A stretch of DNA of 64,000 bases from Escherichia coli. GTDB lineage: Bacteria; Pseudomonadota; Gammaproteobacteria; Enterobacterales; Enterobacteriaceae. The position numbers and the translations under genes were made by a program. Location of the stretch: NCBI RefSeq assembly GCF_016026235.1, contig NZ_CP065613.1. One strand, given 5' to 3'. Positions 18,065-38,838 of this stretch are shown piece by piece (the stretch's first letter is position 1; the number at the start of each line of letters is the position of its first letter). The notes under the pieces are model-generated. The model was not told the origin of the DNA and searched no databases. It worked only from the letters and a program-made list of their open reading frames with translations.

Positions 18065-19252
18065 ATGAACTTATCCCTACGACGCTCTACCAGCGCCCTT
18101 CTTGCCTCGTCGTTGTTATTAACCATCGGACGCGGCGCTACGCTGCCATTTATGACCATTTACTTGAGTCGCCAGTACAGCCTGAGTGTCGATCTAATCG
18201 GTTATGCGATGACAATTGCGCTCACTATTGGCGTCGTTTTTAGCCTCGGTTTTGGTATCCTGGCGGATAAGTTCGACAAGAAACGCTATATGTTACTGGC
18301 AATTACCGCCTTCGCCAGCGGTTTTATTGCCATTCCTTTAGTGAATAACGTAACGCTGGTGGTGCTCTTTTTTGCCCTCATTAACTGCGCCTATTCTGTT
18401 TTTGCTACCGTGCTGAAAGCCTGGTTTGCCGACAATCTTTCGTCCACCAGCAAAACGAAAATCTTCTCAATCAACTACACCATGCTAATCATTGGCTGGA
18501 CCATCGGTCCGCCGCTCGGCACGCTGTTGGTGATGCAGAGCATCAATCTGCCCTTCTGGCTGGCAGCTATCTGTTCCGCGTTTCCCATGCTTTTCATTCA
18601 AATTTGGGTAAAGCGCAGCGAGAAAATCATCGCCACGGAAACAGGCAGTGTCTGGTCGCCGAAAGTTTTATTACAAGATAAAGCACTGTTGTGGTTTACC
18701 TGCTCTGGTTTTCTGGCTTCTTTTGTAAGCGGCGCATTTGCTTCATGCATTTCACAATATGTGATGGTGATTGCTGATGGGGATTTTGCCGAAAAGGTGG
18801 TCGCGGTTGTTCTTCCGGTGAATGCTGCCATGGTGGTTACGTTGCAATATTCCGTGGGCCGCCGACTTAACCCGGCTAACATCCGCGCGCTGATGACAGC
18901 AGGCACCCTCTGTTTCGTCATCGGTCTGGTCGGTTTTATTTTTTCCGGCAACAGCCTGCTATTGTGGGGTATGTCAGCTGCGGTATTTACTGTCGGTGAA
19001 ATCATTTATGCGCCGGGCGAGTATATGTTGATTGACCATATTGCGCCGCCAGGAATGAAAGCCAGCTATTTTTCCGCCCAGTCTTTAGGCTGGCTTGGTG
19101 CCGCGATTAACCCATTAGTGAGTGGCGTAGTGCTAACCAGCCTGCCGCCTTCCTCGCTGTTTGTCATCTTAGCGTTGGTGATCATTGCTGCGTGGGTGCT
19201 GATGTTAAAAGGGATTCGTGCAAGACCGTGGGGGCAGCCCGCGCTTTGTTGA
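18065..19252 (+). CDS. ydeE: MFS transporter YdeE
   Basis: 395-aa 12-TM-type ORF. Confidence 0.85.
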   Translation: MNLSLRRSTSALLASSLLLTIGRGATLPFMTIYLSRQYSLSVDLIGYAMTIALTIGVVFSLGFGILADKFDKKRYMLLAITAFASGFIAIPLVNNVTLVVLFFALINCAYSVFATVLKAWFADNLSSTSKTKIFSINYTMLIIGWTIGPPLGTLLVMQSINLPFWLAAICSAFPMLFIQIWVKRSEKIIATETGSVWSPKVLLQDKALLWFTCSGFLASFVSGAFASCISQYVMVIADGDFAEKVVAVVLPVNAAMVVTLQYSVGRRLNPANIRALMTAGTLCFVIGLVGFIFSGNSLLLWGMSAAVFTVGEIIYAPGEYMLIDHIAPPGMKASYFSAQSLGWLGAAINPLVSGVVLTSLPPSSLFVILALVIIAAWVLMLKGIRARPWGQPALC

Positions 19253-29022: not shown

Positions 29023-29626
29023 AATTCACAGGTGTTTTTTCCCATCCTGTGGTTTCCTTGGCGTTTTCTAGGTTTTTTCAGATAGTTGCATTTTTTAAAA
29101 AGCATCCTAAGTTCGATCTCAGTGTCTATCTGGGGCCTATTTCTGTCCCATATATGCCCCAAAAAAAACTCCCCAACAGATAAGTAGTTTTTTCATGGAT
29201 TTATGCGTAAAATCAAGAACGGCTGGAAATCATTCAATACTCACACTATCGAAAAATTTACCAGCCAACCGCAGCACGTTCTTGCATAAGGCGTGTCTGC
29301 GGTTTTTCAACTATTCAGATACATCACTCCCATCACATTCATTCCTCCGCATCAAAGGCATATAGGCTATATCACCTTGATATTTTTCTTTTTCAGATAA
29401 AAACTGTTATCTATGTATACTTTTAAACCCAATCCGTGTAGAGTCTCTGCATAAGATAGTTTACAGTTGCCGCTTCAGCTTGCGCCATAAACCGCCTGAT
29501 TTTTGCTGCCACCTGTTAGCATTCCTGTATACCTGAAACGACAATGTTTATCTACGAACTTTAAGAACACCCAAGATAAAAATTGTCAACTATATCATAT
29601 ATAACACATTACTAATTCGAGGCTAT

Positions 29627-29740
29627 ATGAACAGCATACTGATAATCACATCTCTCCTTATCATATTCAGCATTTTTAGTCATGCCCTAATAAAATTAGG
29701 GATTGGCATATCCAATAACCCAGACAAAACCGATGTATAA
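29627..29740 (+). CDS. Candidate small hydrophobic protein (37 aa) upstream of ydfK
   Basis: ATG with a GAGG Shine-Dalgarno 7 nt upstream; encodes [37 protein letters not shown] (one predicted TM helix). Confidence 0.3.
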
Positions 29741-29775
29741 GTCAACATATCCTGAATCAGACATACAATATCGCA

Positions 29776-30042
29776 ATGAAAATCAATAATATTTTAAGGA
29801 ATATCTTCATGAAATCAAAAGACACCCTAAAGTGGTTCCCTGCGCAGCTTCCTGAAGTAAGAATTATCCTAGGGGATGCTGTAGTGGAAGTAGCAAAACA
29901 GGGAAGACCTATCAATACCAGAACATTGCTTGATTACATTGAAGGAAACATAAAGAAAAAATCATGGCTGGATAACAAAGAATTATTACAAACAGCGATA
30001 TCAGTTCTTAAAGACAACCAAAATTTAAATGGTAAAATGTAA
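29776..30042 (+). CDS. ydfK: Prophage cold-shock-associated protein YdfK (alternative start at 29809 giving 77 aa)
   Basis: 88-aa ORF; internal MKSKDTLKWFPAQLPEVRIILGDAVVEVAK... matches YdfK/YnaE-type prophage proteins as recalled. Confidence 0.75.
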   Translation: MKINNILRNIFMKSKDTLKWFPAQLPEVRIILGDAVVEVAKQGRPINTRTLLDYIEGNIKKKSWLDNKELLQTAISVLKDNQNLNGKM

Positions 30043-30358
30043 TATAATAAACTTACTTTTTTATCATTTTTCCACTTTAACAACATTTTGCTCCACTTTT
30101 CCACGACCAAACAACTTGAAATCTGGTTAAAATAACACGCAACACTATTCTTCTTCCTTGAGTCCGCCCGGAACTCGAAAAACAAACCGAGTTAAAGCCA
30201 TTTTTCACAAAATCGATTTTGGGTCTCACCAAAATTACGGGGTTGCATACGCATTCGTTTATTTTCGAACGTGTACATACAAATATGCACAAAAATAATC
30301 ATAATTATTTTCTGAGATGCATTATGATATGAACACCAATTTCGTATAGAGTCTCACT

Positions 30359-30949
30359 ATGTCTCGAATTTTTGCTTACTGTCGGATATCAACGCTGGAT
30401 CAGACCACCGAAAATCAACGCCGGGAAATCGAAAGTGCAGGTTTTAAAATCAAACCTCAGCAAATAATCGAAGAACACATTAGCGGCTCAGCAGCAACCA
30501 GTGAGCGTCCTGGTTTTAACCGGTTGCTTGCTCGCCTGAAATGTGGTGATCAATTGATTGTGACAAAACTGGATCGCCTTGGTTGTAATGCAATGGATAT
30601 CAGGAAAACAGTGGAACAACTGACCGAAACAGGTATCAGAGTGCATTGCTTAGCATTGGGTGGCATTGACCTGACCAGTCCAACAGGAAAAATGATGATG
30701 CAAGTAATTTCAGCAGTCGCTGAATTTGAACGAGACCTTTTACTTGAACGCACTCATTCCGGGATAGTAAGAGCCCGCGGCGCAGGGAAACGTTTTGGTC
30801 GACCACCTGTGTTAAATGAAGAACAGAAACAGGTGGTATTCGAACGAATTAAGTCAGGTGTAAGTATAAGTGCCATTGCCCGGGAATTCAAAACCTCGCG
30901 GCAAACCATTTTAAGAGCCAAAGCAAAACTTCAGACACCTGACATATAA
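30359..30949 (+). CDS. pinQ: Serine-recombinase DNA invertase Pin (Gin/Hin/Cin family)
   Basis: 196-aa [23 protein letters not shown]... with catalytic Ser in the RIS motif and C-terminal HTH. Confidence 0.9.
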
Positions 30950-31046
30950 AAAATAATCTCGGTGTGAGATGCTTTACGTCTTCCAAGCCCCCTTCCTTGC
31001 CGTAAATGGAAAGATACATCTAATTATAGAATTTATATGTTTTACC

Positions 31047-31622
31047 CTACGGCAGTGCTGGCCATTCAATATCCTGTGCAGTTGACGTATCAACACGGTT
31101 CAGCAATACCCGATACTTTTTCCATGCTTCCAGCAACGAGATTTCTTCCTCCGTTGCAATTTCCAGATCTGCAGCATCCTGAAGCGGCGCAATATGCTCA
31201 CTGGCTACCTGCATCAGGTTGTTTTTTGTTTCTTCCGCCTCCCGGATCCGGAACAGTTTTTCTGCTTCCGTATCCTTCACCCAGGCTGTGCCGTTCCACT
31301 TCTGAAACTCCCCTTCCGGCGATAACCAGGTAACATTTTCCGGTAACGGACCGAGTTCAGAAATAAATAACGCGTCGCCGGAAGCCACGTCATAAACCGT
31401 TTTACCCCGATGATCTTCAACGAGATGCCACGATGACTCATCACTGTTGAAAACAGCCACGAAGCCAGCCGGAATATCTGGCGGTGCAATATCGGTACTG
31501 TTTGCTGGCAGACCTGTATGAGGCGGAATATATGCATCACCTTCACCAATAAATTCATTAGTTCCGGCCAGCAGATTATAAATTTTTATGGTCCGTGGTT
31601 GTTCACTCATTCTGAATGCCAT
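31047..31622 (-). CDS. tfaQ: Tail fiber assembly protein Tfa
   Basis: 191-aa ORF directly downstream of the stf C-terminal segment. Confidence 0.85.
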
Positions 31623-34600
31623 TATGCAAGCCTCACAATATAGTTAAATGCGATGTTTTTGACGGTGTTTTCCGCGTTACCAGCAGCGTTAACGGTGATG
31701 GTGTGTCCATGTGAACCAATCGCAACGGAGTGCGTATGAGCACCAATACCGACAGTATGCGCGTGTGCACCTGCAGATGCTGCTGTGCCGGACAGTGAGT
31801 GGCTATGATTACCATCTGTACTGGTATTAGCTAACCACCCCGTAGACATACCTACTGAGCCTTGTACACCCCAGGTATTTTGACCTGAGCTTGTATAACC
31901 ATATTGATAAGTATCTTTAAAAACACTGGGGTTAAATCGACGGCCATCTCTATGGCTGTGATTACCAGCTGCATTCGTGCTGCCACTTAAACTATGGGTA
32001 TGCGCACCAGTGTTATTCGTGGATTTAGTGCCGTAATCAAACGACGATGTGGTTTTCGTCCCCAAATCCGTACTGGATGCGCTGGCGCTGTGGGTATGCG
32101 ATTTAATGCCGTCCTATTCCTGAGACAATACGGCCCGACCACTGGTAGGTTTGCCCTTAATCGTCCAGCCACGCATATCAGGGATCACGCCTGACGGATA
32201 AGCCGCTGCAAGTTTCGGGTATGCAGATTTGTCAAAAGTCTGCCCCTGCATCAGGGCATAGCCAGACGGAACGGTATCTGATGGCCACGGGATTGGTGCA
32301 CCGACTGGATAAAACTCTGCAGGAGGATGAGCCGAGGTGTAAAGCTGCGCCCACGGCGACCAGTTTGCGTCGGTCGTATCCCGTCGTGAACGAATAAATG
32401 CCGGAGCATGAGCACCGCTTGTACCACTCCAGCCGATGAGTAACTCACCTTCGCCAACGGCTGTCATCCCTTTCAGGTGAATGATATTTCCATACGCTGT
32501 TGGATATCCGTTGTTATACACCTCGTATAACTCAAGACCTGTTGCCCCCTGCGTATTGTCTGTCAGCGCGGTTACCCGACCTTTTGAAGACAGATTAACT
32601 GATGATACTGCTGTTCCACCTGACGGTAACGCCCCGATCTCTGATGCCGTTGGCTTATTTCTGGAGTTATAGTCCCTTCGCCAGCCAGGTGAATAATCTG
32701 TTCCGTGATTAATATAGGTAAACTGGGCGTTAGTTGTTCCACCACCAGTGGAGGTGGTCGGTGTGGTAATGCGGATCGTCATCGCTGACTTTATCCCCAT
32801 TACTTCAATGACAGCTCCGGCGAGATGAATATTACCGCAGTCAGTATCAGTAATGATTTTATTATTGCCATAAGACCAGGAACCCTTGCACATCCAGTAG
32901 GGATGGTTAAATGCTCCCTGAGAATCCAGCCACTCGATAAACTGTGCAGTCGTCCAGTTTCCTGTTATTGTGCTTACTGACCCACCAAAGGCACGGCAGG
33001 CACCAATATTTTTCGTAAAGGTGTCTTTGCCAGGGATATCCGCACCGTTCTGATCTTTCTGCAGACGTTTCTCAGCATTGTCATAGGCTGTTTTTACTGC
33101 CTTTGGTGTCGCGGCAAGCGTTTCAGACGTGCTGTTGGTCGCGCTGCTTAGCTGGATTATCCCTTTCTGTGCTGTCGTTGCATCCTGTGCGGTGTATTTC
33201 CCGTTAGCCAGGTCATACGCGGCCTTAACGGCTTTTGGTGTTGCCGCCAGTGACTCGGAAGTGCTGTTAGTCGCACTACTGAGCTGTACTATCCCCTTTT
33301 TCGTCGTGCTCGCATCCTCAAGCGCCACAGCGGATGCAATATCCTCTGCCCGTTTTGCTGCTGTCTCGGCGCGCGTTGCTGCGGATTCTGCCGTACTCTT
33401 GCTCTGTGCTGCCGCCGTCGCACTGCCAGCAGCCTCTGTTGCCTTCGTGGATGCCGTCGTGGCGCTGCCCTTCGCTGCTGACGCTTGTCTGGTCGCCTCA
33501 TCTTTTGAAGCAGACGCCGATGAGGCCGATGACGCCGCCGAACTGGCGGACGATGCGGCAGCCGTTTTTGAGGATTCTGCGCTGGTTTCCGACGCTTTCG
33601 CGTTCGTTTCGGATGTCTTCGCTGCGGAAGCTGACCTCGCTGCTGCGCTGGCCTGTTCAGTGGCTTCGCCAGCCTTCGTTGTGGCTGTTGAAGCGGATGA
33701 TGCGGCGCTTTCTGCCGATTTTCCGGCGGCGATGGCACTGGCTGAGGCCTGCCCGGCACTTGTTGACGCGGCACTGGCAGACGACGCAGCCGCTGTTTTT
33801 GAGCCTGCCGCAGCTGAGGCGCTCTGTCCCGCTGCCGTCTCAGAAGACCTGGCGTTCGTCTCGGACGTTTTTGCCGCCTTCGCGGAATTTGCTGCCGCCG
33901 TTGCCGAGGAAGCTGCGCTACTGGCGCTCGAGGATGCGTTCGTTTCTGATGATTTTGCCGCCTCTTTTGAAGCCGACGCATCCTGGGCTGAGGTGGCAGC
34001 TTCTGACGCTTTCGTAGTCGCGGTGGATGCAGAAGTGGCTGCTGATTGTTGTGACGCTGCAGCATTCGTTTCTGACGTTTTCGCGGCACTGGCACTGGTA
34101 GCTGCCGCGCTTTTTGAGGACTCTGCAGCGGCAGCACTTTTTGATGCTTCAGTGGCCTTTGCTGATGCCGTTCCTGCGCTGGAAGACGCTGACTGAGCCG
34201 ACGACGCGGCCTGTCCGGCTGACGTGCTGGCTGCGCGTGCTAAGCCTGCAGCATCAGTTGCATGGGTTGCCGCCTCACGGGCTGATGTGCCGGCATCGCT
34301 GGCTGACTTCTTCGCGGCTGCTGTGTTCTGTGCCACCGCGGACGCGTTACGCGCCACCTCTTCCACCATCAGTTCAAAACGTCGCAGTGCCTCCGGACGG
34401 GCATCATCCTCCGTCATGGCACCGAGAAAATCATTCAGCGTACCGGGTTGAGAATCTTCATACACGGTGATGGTCCCGGCATGTGACGGCGGGAATCCTT
34501 CCACCAACAGAATAACGCTGTACTGACCGTACTCAACGTCCATGCTGTAACGCCCGGCTTCATCCGGATTTTCTGAGGCCAGCGTGTTCACCACCACCGC

Positions 34601-34693
34601 GGTGCTGTTACGTTTTGCTTTCAGCTGGATTGTGCAGTTCTGTACCGGTTTTCCTGTGCCGTCTTTCAGTACACCTGAAATCTTTACTGCCAT
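31622..34693 (-). pseudogene. stfQ: Side tail fiber Stf, interrupted by an in-frame amber codon at 32114-32116
   Basis: 873-aa ORF (lambda-Stf-like [26 protein letters not shown]... start at 34693) and a 147-aa ORF with His-rich tail-fiber repeats share one frame, separated only by TAG. Confidence 0.7.
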
Positions 34694-34756
34694 ATTCACC
34701 CCACAAAAAGCCCGCCTGAACCAGCGGGCTGTCATAACACTGTGTTACCTGGCTAA

Positions 34757-35356
34757 TCAGAACTTATAACCGACACCCACGATGAAACCGTCAGTGCGCC
34801 AGTCGCCACTGCCGGAACCTTCATAAGCAAGGTCAATGGCCACGGATTCGGTCGGGTTAAACTGCACGCCAGCTCCCCACGCCAGAGACGTGTTGCTGTG
34901 GCGACCGTCATCACTTCCGGTCAGCACGTCGTGCGTTTTCCCCTTGTTGTCAGTTACGCGGAGATAATCCCCGGAGAAAGTCGACACACGGCTGTAAGCC
35001 ATACCCGCCATCGCATACGCGCTGAACCATTCATTCACGCGCACAGACGGCCCCACCATCACGCTGAACCAGCGGTTACGCACGGAATCTTCATGCCAGC
35101 GGGTATCGCTGTAACGGGTAAGCTGGCGATTCTTGTCTCCTGCATAGCTGAATGACGTCACCAGCCCCAGTGTGTCCGTAAACTCATAACGGTATTTCAC
35201 GTTAATCCCGTTAAGATCATCGCTGCCGGGAACGTTCGTCGAGGCATGAAGATACCCCGCGCTCAGCGTGGACTGATGTTCAGATGCCCATGCAGGCGCA
35301 CCGGATACGGCCAGACAAATGGCTGCGGACAAAATGGCGGCATAAAGTTTACGCAT
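34757..35356 (-). CDS. lom: Lom-like outer-membrane protein (Ail/Lom/OmpX family)
   Basis: 199-aa ORF with signal peptide and beta-barrel pattern, ending ...VGVGYKF. Confidence 0.85.
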
Positions 35357-35380
35357 AATTACCTCTCGCTTTTCTGCAAT

Positions 35381-35404
35381 AAAAAAGGCACCATTTCTGG
35401 TGCC
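35381..35404 (-). terminator. Hairpin plus U-run on the minus strand between J and lom
   Basis: Minus strand reads GGCACCAGAAATGGTGCC followed by TTTTTT. Confidence 0.45.
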
Positions 35405-35425
35405 CTTATATGGGTTATAACAATT

Positions 35426-38838
<3,413 letters not shown>

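Follow-up and report, generated by a model that had tools for sequence, protein, structure and literature searches.

Heptad shaft, Phage_fiber_2 units and distal module in the side tail fibre gene of a Qin-type lambdoid prophage

What does the long alanine-, serine- and threonine-rich tract in the middle of a prophage tail fibre gene encode, and how does the tandem repeat at its end bear on fibre length? We addressed this question in a 64,000-nucleotide stretch of Escherichia coli DNA (contig NZ_CP065613.1; hereafter the window), for which an original prediction had described such a region inside stf. Our analysis indicates that the region is very probably the middle of a lambda-type Stf, in which a coiled-coil shaft is followed by adaptor units and an exchangeable distal module, and whose length varies in quantised steps.

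The gene and its neighbours are as follows.

32114..34693, minus strand: stf open reading frame in the window, 859 codons plus TAG, with the ATG at 34693 (ORF list and translation)
34412..34693, minus strand: Stf N-terminal collar domain, aa 1-94 (residues 1-94 of the lambda 'Tail fiber protein', PDB 9e7m/9mgh, E = 1.3e-51)
34757-35356, minus strand: lom
35989-38835, minus strand: J
31047..31622, minus strand: tfa, tail fibre assembly chaperone (Pfam Caudo_TAP, E = 3.6e-43; tfaQ in one relative's annotation)

The stf product is the side tail fibre of a Qin-type lambdoid prophage. The gene shares 99.3% identity with annotated prophage and phage tail fibre genes, and its product carries the Pfam domains phage_tail_N, Phage_fiber_2 (twice) and Collar. 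The placement of the region inside stf thus held, on the strength of the phage_tail_N domain of PF08400-headed prophage fibres (E = 2.4e-71 over Stf 1-134), the 9e7m match and the flanking lom and tfa genes. All of J, lom, stf and tfa lie on the minus strand, and the same order, with J and lom before stf and tfa after it, is annotated in relatives. The N-terminal collar domain of Stf attaches the fibre to the tail tip (PMC12617516).

Directly downstream of this anchor, lag-7 autocorrelation and heptad stacking delimited one long element.

33305..34396, minus strand: heptad tract, aa 100-463, 52 uninterrupted heptads of the form x-x-S-A-x-x-A

Between aa 120 and 465, Stf consists of 37.6% Ala, 24.0% Ser and 11.8% Thr, or 73% for the three residues together, compared with about 10%, 8% and 10% in the remainder of the protein; large hydrophobic residues number 6 out of 344. 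The motif KTSETNA occurs three times and KSSETNA once, in agreement with the description of the tract as (A/S/T)-rich and KTSETNA-like. The accompanying view that it is merely low-complexity sequence did not stand, for the tract holds a strict coiled-coil register over all 52 heptads, with Ala at 90% of seventh and 67% of fourth positions and Ser at 69% of third positions. Identity autocorrelation of the Stf protein peaked at lags 7, 14, 21 ... 56 only (z = 7.5-10 against 500 shuffles; z = 10 at lag 7). At the DNA level, each of the 22 strongest lags within 33000-34300 was a multiple of 21 nt (z = 3.1-6.0 relative to codon shuffles), with a mean z of 3.67 for multiples of 21 and 0.09 for other multiples of 3. 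Since the strongest DNA lags are all multiples of 21 nt, the internal repetition expected of a self dot-plot of this interval is present, as a 21-nt DNA period and a 7-aa protein period that both exceed shuffled controls.

The A/S/T tract is very probably a coiled-coil shaft; it is not random low complexity, and would extend for about 54 nm if fully coiled. AlphaFold2 predicted a single continuous helix over Stf aa 98-319 (pLDDT 89.9). By analogy with the Ur-lambda Stf and PCoil literature, the tract would be trimeric: cryo-EM/ET of lambda Stf revealed a trimeric coiled coil, which in Ur-lambda occupies Stf 102-393 on the proximal side and is followed by a hinge (PMC12617516), and the homologous PCoil was shown to be a trimeric coiled coil by CD and SEC-MALLS (PMC3368898). 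It is highly improbable that the tract is instead an intrinsically disordered, flexible low-complexity linker with no structured shaft. Such a linker would suit the extreme composition, with its 73% Ala+Ser+Thr and scarcity of large hydrophobic residues, but it conflicts with the strict register across 52 repeats, with the confident single helix, with length changes that mostly keep register among relatives, and with the published trimeric coiled coils of the PCoil homologue and of lambda Stf.

The base composition of the codons accounts for several long open reading frames overlapping the shaft.

33129..34196, plus strand: spurious 355-aa antisense ORF (ORF list)
33334-34017, plus strand: spurious 227-aa antisense ORF (ORF list)
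33289-34137, minus strand: spurious 282-aa ORF in a frame other than that of stf (ORF list)

These antisense and other-frame ORFs are base-composition artefacts, because C occupies codon position 2 in 65% of codons and leaves four of the six frames nearly stop-free (0-2 stops). Stop counts and codon-position composition thereby confirm the earlier suggestion that the complementary strand yields long spurious ORFs. That one of them, such as 33129-34196 on the plus strand, is a real overlapping gene is barely credible. Their lengths of 227-355 aa and the annotation of equivalents in some records might invite that reading; against it, GCN, TCN and ACN codons suffice to open the four frames, the antisense products are Ala/Asp/Phe-rich low-complexity strings, and the stf frame is backed by Pfam, the PDB and thousands of homologues. 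The tract matters for annotation, as the false ORFs that it generates have already entered public records; lambda orf206b is one, and three 'hypothetical proteins' of ev099 are others.

[quoted passage not shown]

33170..33301, minus strand: Phage_fiber_2 unit 1, aa 465-508 (repeat search, Pfam, translation)
33038..33169, minus strand: Phage_fiber_2 unit 2, aa 509-552, at the junction to the distal module (repeat search, Pfam, match to Mu gpS residues 115-151)

The DNA repeat search paired 33080-33186 with 33212-33318, at a spacing of 132 nt and 72% identity over 107 nt. The pair of roughly 130-bp copies announced in the original prediction therefore exists, with a 132-nt spacing, although the interval given for it, about 33125-33390, is shifted to the right by roughly 90 bp. 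The encoded peptides match those quoted there exactly, and they belong to a true repeat family, PF03406 Phage_fiber_2, which scored 129.3 bits on Stf (cut-off 22) in two stretches. Among 150 representatives of this family, proteins carry 1-14 units, and the 44-aa spacing found here is also the modal one (153 intervals), followed by 56 aa; a PF03406-type unit was found in 3,035 cluster representatives at E <= 1e-3. A search of the unit profile against PDB sequences returned Mu gpS entries only (5yvq, 8ju3, 9ki1), in which the motif residues are possibly unmodelled. An AlphaFold2 monomer of aa 422-690, spanning the shaft end, the two units and the distal domain, reached a mean pLDDT of 34 and was unusable; the three-dimensional shape of the unit is one that we infer.

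As peptides the two units are near-identical (28/30 residues of the core); as DNA they are diverged, at 57% identity across 132 nt and ~72% across the core, with no exact run longer than 8 nt and with 16 codons of the near-invariant peptide differing synonymously. Tandem Repeats Finder, run over 31000-37000, reported three tiny arrays only (periods 9-15, scores 39-43); the 21-nt periodicity and the 132-nt pair both escaped it, the latter because its copies are too diverged. The pair lacks the high identity and long exact matches expected of a slippage-prone repeat, and with a longest exact run of 8 nt, slippage here should be rare. In DNA comparisons, the unit recurs in P2 H, 186 K and P1/P7 Sc (71-88% identity) and in 163 phage records in all. 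Unit 2 is closer to the P2 gene H unit (86.6% DNA identity) than to unit 1, which suggests that an old duplication or modular exchange, and not recent slippage at the locus, probably brought the pair together.

A recent tandem duplication, forming a contingency repeat prone to slippage or unequal crossover that changes fibre length within the strain, is accordingly an improbable origin for the two 132-bp copies. It would fit the variation in copy number between close relatives and the nearly identical units of L071, which show that fresh duplications happen (below), and the junction in the single unit of PhiR29_1 falls at the longest run common to both copies, ACACCAAA. However, the pair shows too little DNA identity and too short an exact run, its synonymous differences lie within an almost unchanged peptide, it is invisible to Tandem Repeats Finder, and unit 2 has its nearer relative in P2 H. 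Moreover, the same diverged pair is kept at 100% identity in phage mEp460_ev081 and at 99.3% in E. coli SCU-316.

Variation among relatives supports the reading of the region as shaft, adaptor units and distal module. The stf gene matched 17,771 places in 5,135 E. coli genomes. In 73 Stf homologues whose N-termini are nearly the same, a redundant sample out of the top 80 among at least 589 IMG/VR hits, unit number was 0, 1, 2 or 3, always at a spacing of 44 aa, and shaft lengths were 247, 254, 345 and 359 aa, all equal modulo 7. Repeat copy number thus differs among strains, in fixed 44-aa steps. The lambda Stf shaft is shorter by exactly 105 aa (15 heptads). Tract indels that break the multiple-of-seven rule (-3, +3, -34 and +61 aa) occurred in 4 of 120 close homologues, mostly as single partial sequences, and the rule is, as far as these sequences indicate, dominant and not absolute. 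Unit counts were obtained with a regular expression plus a 12-sequence profile; a four-sequence unit HMM (hmmsearch, also with filters off) missed all single-unit proteins, in which units were present on inspection.

Chimeric units occur among these alleles. PhiR29_1, at 96% overall identity, carries one unit where the prophage here carries two, and this single unit is unit-1-like over its first 62 nt and unit-2-like thereafter. Other single-unit alleles are chimeric too, with differing switch points; the window's two copies are the sole reference for the unit-1-like and unit-2-like calls, and part of the patchiness may be shared polymorphism instead of crossovers. The L071 allele has units 1 and 2 that agree at 95% of positions and share an exact stretch of 86 nt, a pattern indicating a recent unit duplication. 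Beyond the last unit, the homologues continue into at least seven different distal sequences. We infer that recombination inside the unit is the main cause of copy-number change. The proposal that such repeats promote slipped recombination and fibre length variation was therefore right in that copy number and length vary among strains, but it does not extend to these two units, whose 57% identity and 8-nt run do not make them slippage-prone.

The unit might alternatively be the target of a neighbouring Pin-type invertase, with variation arising by site-specific inversion in the style of Mu G, P1 C or e14 P.

30359-30949: pinQ-like serine invertase gene adjoining tfa (Pfam Resolvase, E = 2.5e-36, plus HTH_7)

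Beyond this gene, inversion could draw on the partial ascription of old cross-family stf exchanges to fibre-associated invertases (PMC3945230), and on the location of the Mu unit in the constant part Sc, immediately upstream of the switch point. The locus itself speaks otherwise: between 29500 and 34800, no inverted repeat of at least 18 nt links stf/tfa to a partner site, and a search of the window for the gix-like AAACCNNGGTTT core gave a lone match at 18416, which is at chance level and not near the locus. Inverted crossover sites flanking alternative C-termini or chaperones were thus lacking in both searches, and there is a single tfa and a single fibre C-terminus with no alternative set. 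With no such inverted repeat in 29500-34800 and no gix-like core near the locus, the invertible-segment idea was rejected, and we regard inversion as very unlikely.

Downstream of the units lie the distal parts of the fibre.

32606..33082, minus strand: distal domain, aa 538-696, a homologue of the variable region in the S' fibre of phage Mu (PDB 8ju3, domain E = 8.2e-68)
32117..32314, minus strand: Collar domain, aa 794-859, common to T4 gp37 and lambda Stf (PDB 2xgf, E = 1.1e-29; Pfam Collar, E = 5.9e-12)
32114..32116, minus strand: in-frame amber codon TAG, CAG (Gln860) in relatives (base 32116 is A here versus G in both relatives; translation)
31622..32113, minus strand: in-frame continuation of stf past the amber codon, 163 codons plus stop, encoding the receptor-binding tip with GxHxH repeats (Pfam Phage_fiber, E = 3e-07)

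In relatives, a single 1023-aa protein runs across the amber site. The frame through the receptor-binding tip is interrupted in stf here, and ORF callers list the post-amber piece as a separate 147-aa ORF (31622-32065). The amber at 32114-32116 is private to the stf gene studied here: among 2,167 E. coli records carrying the segment, none was identical across it. With the gene cut by the amber codon, this strain may produce no side fibre whatsoever; as the codon removes the receptor-binding tip, the fibre would probably be non-functional unless the codon is suppressed. A supE host, which inserts Gln, would put back the residue of the relatives.

Taken as a fibre architecture, the region suggests the following arrangement. 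Three Stf chains would wind the 52-heptad helix into a thin, rigid, proximal coiled-coil shaft, its core positions filled by small Ala side chains flanked by Ser, which would hold the tail tip and the receptor-binding end apart. The two 44-residue units at the far end of the shaft would act as a conserved adaptor that links the coiled coil to the exchangeable distal module, here Mu S'-like with a T4 gp37-like tip at its end. As shaft and units both consist of pieces of constant size (7 aa and 44 aa), register-preserving insertions, deletions and exchanges would be tolerated in them, and fibre length would consequently differ between phages in quantised steps. The unit would in addition provide a homology patch for swapping distal modules, because its sequence is common to P2, P1, Mu and other lambdoid fibres. 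Trimer formation and a role in adsorption are carried over from the literature, in which trimeric Ur-lambda Stf sits on the tail tip and accelerates adsorption (PMC12617516). A further idea, which we consider rather unlikely, is that heptad and unit number act as a selected, quantised 'length dial' that fits fibre reach and hinge position to how thick a surface layer (O-antigen or capsule) the host bears, with recombination in the unit changing length and receptor-binding module together.

The coiled coil, heptad-quantised length, the Phage_fiber_2 repeat and mosaic module exchange have all been published, and the finding is real but ordinary. The nearest counterpart is Ur-lambda gpStf (UniProt P03764; 9e7m/9mgh; Wang et al. 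2025, PMC12617516), which shares the N-terminal collar domain (aa 1-94, E = 1.3e-51), an Ala/Ser/Thr heptad shaft near-identical in sequence, a Phage_fiber_2 unit at the shaft end, the Collar domain, the GxHxH C-terminal tip and the lom-stf-tfa order. It differs in having a shaft shorter by 15 heptads (105 aa), one unit where there are two here, and its own hinge and distal domain where the module following the units here is Mu S'-like. Lambda PaPa stf is disrupted by a frameshift, whereas the lesion here is an amber at residue 860.

The EHEC fibres EPclA and EPclB (PfN-PCoil-Col-(Pf2)-PfC; PMC3368898) likewise differ in length by multiples of seven and use Pf2 (PF03406) as an inter-module domain. 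The PCoil pattern of heptads with small Ala/Ser core residues directly after PfN (Ghosh 2012) is also present here. Their PCoil, however, spans ~116 aa and is richer in Glu, compared with a tract of 364 aa in our case, and they contain collagen triple helices and PfC ends, both of which Stf here lacks. Among resident prophages, K-12 stfQ (Qin) and stfR (Rac) share the context ydfK-pinQ-tfaQ-stf-lom-J, by the annotation of E. coli SCU-316, and are known recombination substrates with lambda stf and tfa (PMC3945230); a probable difference is that the prophage in the window retains lom, J and an stf of nearly full length.

More distant fibres share parts of this architecture. In Mu gpS/gpS' (5yvq, 8ju3, 9ki1), S residues 115-151 constitute a Phage_fiber_2 unit (profile E = 1.2e-19), and Stf aa 538-696 are homologous to the S' variable part (E about 8e-68). 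Mu is nevertheless a myophage whose fibre has another N-terminal anchor on the baseplate and lacks a long Ala-rich coiled coil, and its fibre end is switched by Gin inversion, of which the inverted-repeat and gix-core searches gave no evidence here. P2 gpH, 186 K and P1/P7 gpS(Sc) contain the unit at 71-88% nucleotide identity, often in several copies per gene, but these are myophage fibres with other virion anchors and distal domains. They are the classic case in which unrelated phages have exchanged fibre segments horizontally. A functional engineered fibre joins lambda STF 1-393 to P2 H from residue 251 (PMC11338833), and lambda STF residue 393 is the exact end of the unit. Fibre engineers have a natural splice point for receptor-binding modules where the 44-aa unit ends, and it has already been used as such.

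The stf open reading frame runs on the minus strand from the lambda Stf start (MAVKISG...) at 34693 to a TAG at 32114-32116. Its domains, repeat units and neighbours are the following.

Aa 1-134 of Stf: phage_tail_N domain (Pfam, E = 2.4e-71)
Within Stf: two Phage_fiber_2 (PF03406) repeats (Pfam, 129 bits)
33170-33301, minus strand: unit 1, aa 465-508
33038-33169, minus strand: unit 2, aa 509-552
Aa 798-845 of Stf: Collar domain (Pfam)
34757-35356: lom, upstream of stf
From 35989: J, upstream of stf
31047-31622: tfa, downstream of stf
30359-30949, plus strand: pin-type serine invertase (pinQ-like), adjoining tfa, downstream of stf

The Pfam families and neighbours, together with relatives that include annotated prophage fibre genes (99.3% identity to the window segment) and phage mEp460_ev081 (99.0%), identify the gene by homology as the side tail fibre gene of a Qin-type lambdoid prophage. 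Around the matching segment of E. coli SCU-316 the gene order is ydfK-pinQ-tfaQ-stf-lom-gpJ. A terminator-like hairpin (AGCCCGC...GCGGGCT, then a T-run) separates lom from the start codon of stf (34709-34730, minus strand); its T-run is one T shorter in the window (34704) than in two close relatives. Several NCBI entries of this fibre family (P0018, P0021, P0035 and others) carry the name 'short-chain fatty acid transporter, partial', an evident misannotation.

The terminal TAG is an in-frame amber codon that cuts stf where relatives have CAG (Gln860); the next 163 codons stay in frame to 31622 and code for a GxHxH receptor-binding tip. Since none of 2,167 E. coli records is identical across the amber-spanning 61-nt segment (best 98.4%, one mismatch), the mutation appears, from these records, to be confined to this genome. 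In a supE suppressor background, the Gln of relatives would be restored.

The original prediction described the central region as low-complexity with KTSETNA-like units. The biased composition is real—Ala makes up 37.6%, Ser 24.0% and Thr 11.8% of residues 120-465, with KTSETNA occurring three times and KSSETNA once in the tract—but the label misses its order. Stacked in sevens, the sequence keeps a single unbroken register of 52 heptads, x-x-S-A-x-x-A, from aa 100 to aa 463, with Ala at 90% of seventh and 67% of fourth positions, Ser at 69% of third positions, and large hydrophobics at only 6 of 344 residues. Protein identity autocorrelation peaks at lags 7, 14 ... 56 (z = 7.5-10) and is flat or negative elsewhere. 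The predicted internal repetition is equally evident in DNA: in a self-comparison of 33000-34300, scored against codon-shuffled controls, each of the 22 strongest lags is a multiple of 21 nt (z = 3.1-6.0), with a mean z of 3.67 at multiples of 21 versus 0.09 at other multiples of 3. An AlphaFold2 single-chain run returned one continuous helix over aa 98-319 (mean pLDDT 89.9), and cryo-EM/ET of Ur-lambda places Stf 102-393 in a proximal trimeric coiled coil, after a flexible linker and before a hinge (PMC12617516). Heptad register, helix prediction and published biophysics all contradict a disordered linker. The tract is thus very probably a coiled coil built of heptads rather than plain low complexity, in agreement with that structure and with EHEC prophage fibres, whose Ala/Ser-rich coiled coil (PCoil) differs in length by multiples of seven (PMC3368898); its 364 residues would span ~54 nm at 0.1485 nm per residue.

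Long antisense ORFs cross the same tract, and were predicted to be spurious. That they are real genes is unlikely: because C occupies codon position 2 in 65% of codons, four of six frames contain only 0-2 stops, and stf is the sole frame with homology support. The lambda record J02459 annotates one such ORF, orf206b (1257-1877 of locus L087), and the ev099 record three antisense 'hypothetical proteins' (3162-4585 of locus L004), with stf split into two CDSs.

The predicted ~130-bp repeat corresponds to the two Phage_fiber_2 units. The pair and the quoted peptides are real, whereas the position proposed, 33125-33390, lies ~90 bp too far right: a repeat search placed the copies at 33080-33186 and 33212-33318 (132-nt spacing, 72% identity over 107 nt). 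Tandem Repeats Finder did not detect the 132-nt pair. Unit DNAs agree at 57% of positions across the full 132 nt and at about 72% in the conserved core, and their longest exact run is 8 nt; 16 synonymous codon differences fall within a peptide core identical at 28 of 30 residues. The diverged pair recurs at 100% identity in mEp460_ev081, and unit 2 is closer to the P2 gene H unit (86.6% identity) than to unit 1. Divergent DNA, near-invariant peptide, conservation and P2 H likeness make the pair look old or assembled by modular exchange, its peptide apparently kept constant by selection. Across PF03406, 3,035 cluster representatives (50% identity) match at E <= 1e-3; the best 150 carry 1-14 units each, most commonly spaced 44 aa apart (153 intervals), then 56 aa. 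Among solved-structure sequences, the motif was matched by sequence only in Mu gpS and gpS' (5yvq, 8ju3, 9ki1; residues 115-151), and a monomer model of the unit region (pLDDT 34) was too low to use.

We examined variation in the best 80 of at least 589 IMG/VR loci, with 96-99% identical N-terminal domains. Their 73 Stf proteins of at least 600 aa contain 0 (16 alleles), 1 (38), 2 (15) or 3 (4) units, always spaced 44 aa, and LMVEEV and the first unit lie 247, 254, 345 or 359 aa apart, lengths that leave the same remainder on division by 7; the lambda shaft is exactly 105 aa (15 heptads) shorter than the window's, and lambda has one unit. Exceptions to this rule of seven occur in 4 of 120 close homologues (tract indels of -3, +3, -34 and +61 aa), mostly single partial sequences. 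Phage PhiR29_1, 96% identical overall, has one unit rather than two: its first 62 nt match unit 1 and the remainder unit 2, switching at the ACACCAAA run, the longest identity between them. In other single-unit alleles the change from unit-1-like to unit-2-like sites comes at differing positions. In allele L071, units 1 and 2 share 95% identity and an exact run of 86 nt, the sign of a recent duplication. The family shows the anticipated variation in fibre length and copy number, in quantised steps, as well as recombination inside the unit, but the two copies in the window have diverged too far to act as a repeat prone to slippage; the original observation is confirmed and its interpretation partly supported.

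Fibre variation by invertase-mediated switching, conceivable with a pinQ-like gene beside tfa, is unsupported: the locus has one fibre end and one tfa only. No inverted repeats in 29500-34800 and no gix-like core near stf were found, so the gene appears to be an orphan invertase lacking an invertible fibre segment.

Beyond the last unit, alleles differ, with at least seven unrelated distal sequences among them. In the window, aa 538-696 (32606-33082, minus strand) have a strong homologue in the Mu S' fibre, in its variable part (PDB 8ju3, E = 8e-68), and T4 gp37 is the homologue of the end of the protein, aa 794-859 (E = 1.1e-29); given the Mu S' homology, this Stf is, as judged by its sequence, a lambda / Mu-S' / T4-gp37-type mosaic. 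Two IMG/VR alleles (L043, L047) abandon the common shaft right after a KTSETNA heptad (Stf aa ~280-340), running on through a different heptad-like stretch (DNSAQAAADSQ...KKSETNAKNSE...) to unrelated distal domains that lack a Phage_fiber_2 unit, which suggests that the coiled coil itself contains a second exchange point.

The 44-aa unit would act as an adaptor between shaft and distal module and as a point of module exchange. A total of 163 phage records share the unit DNA, among them P2 H, 186 K and P1/P7 Sc. A functional fibre has been engineered in which lambda STF 1-393 is continued by P2 H residues 251 onward (PMC11338833), and by count on the lambda sequence its unit region (...MDETNR) ends at residue 393. 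Everything of substance on tract and units is already in the literature, and stf and tfa are likewise known sites of recombination between lambda and the Qin and Rac prophages (PMC3945230).
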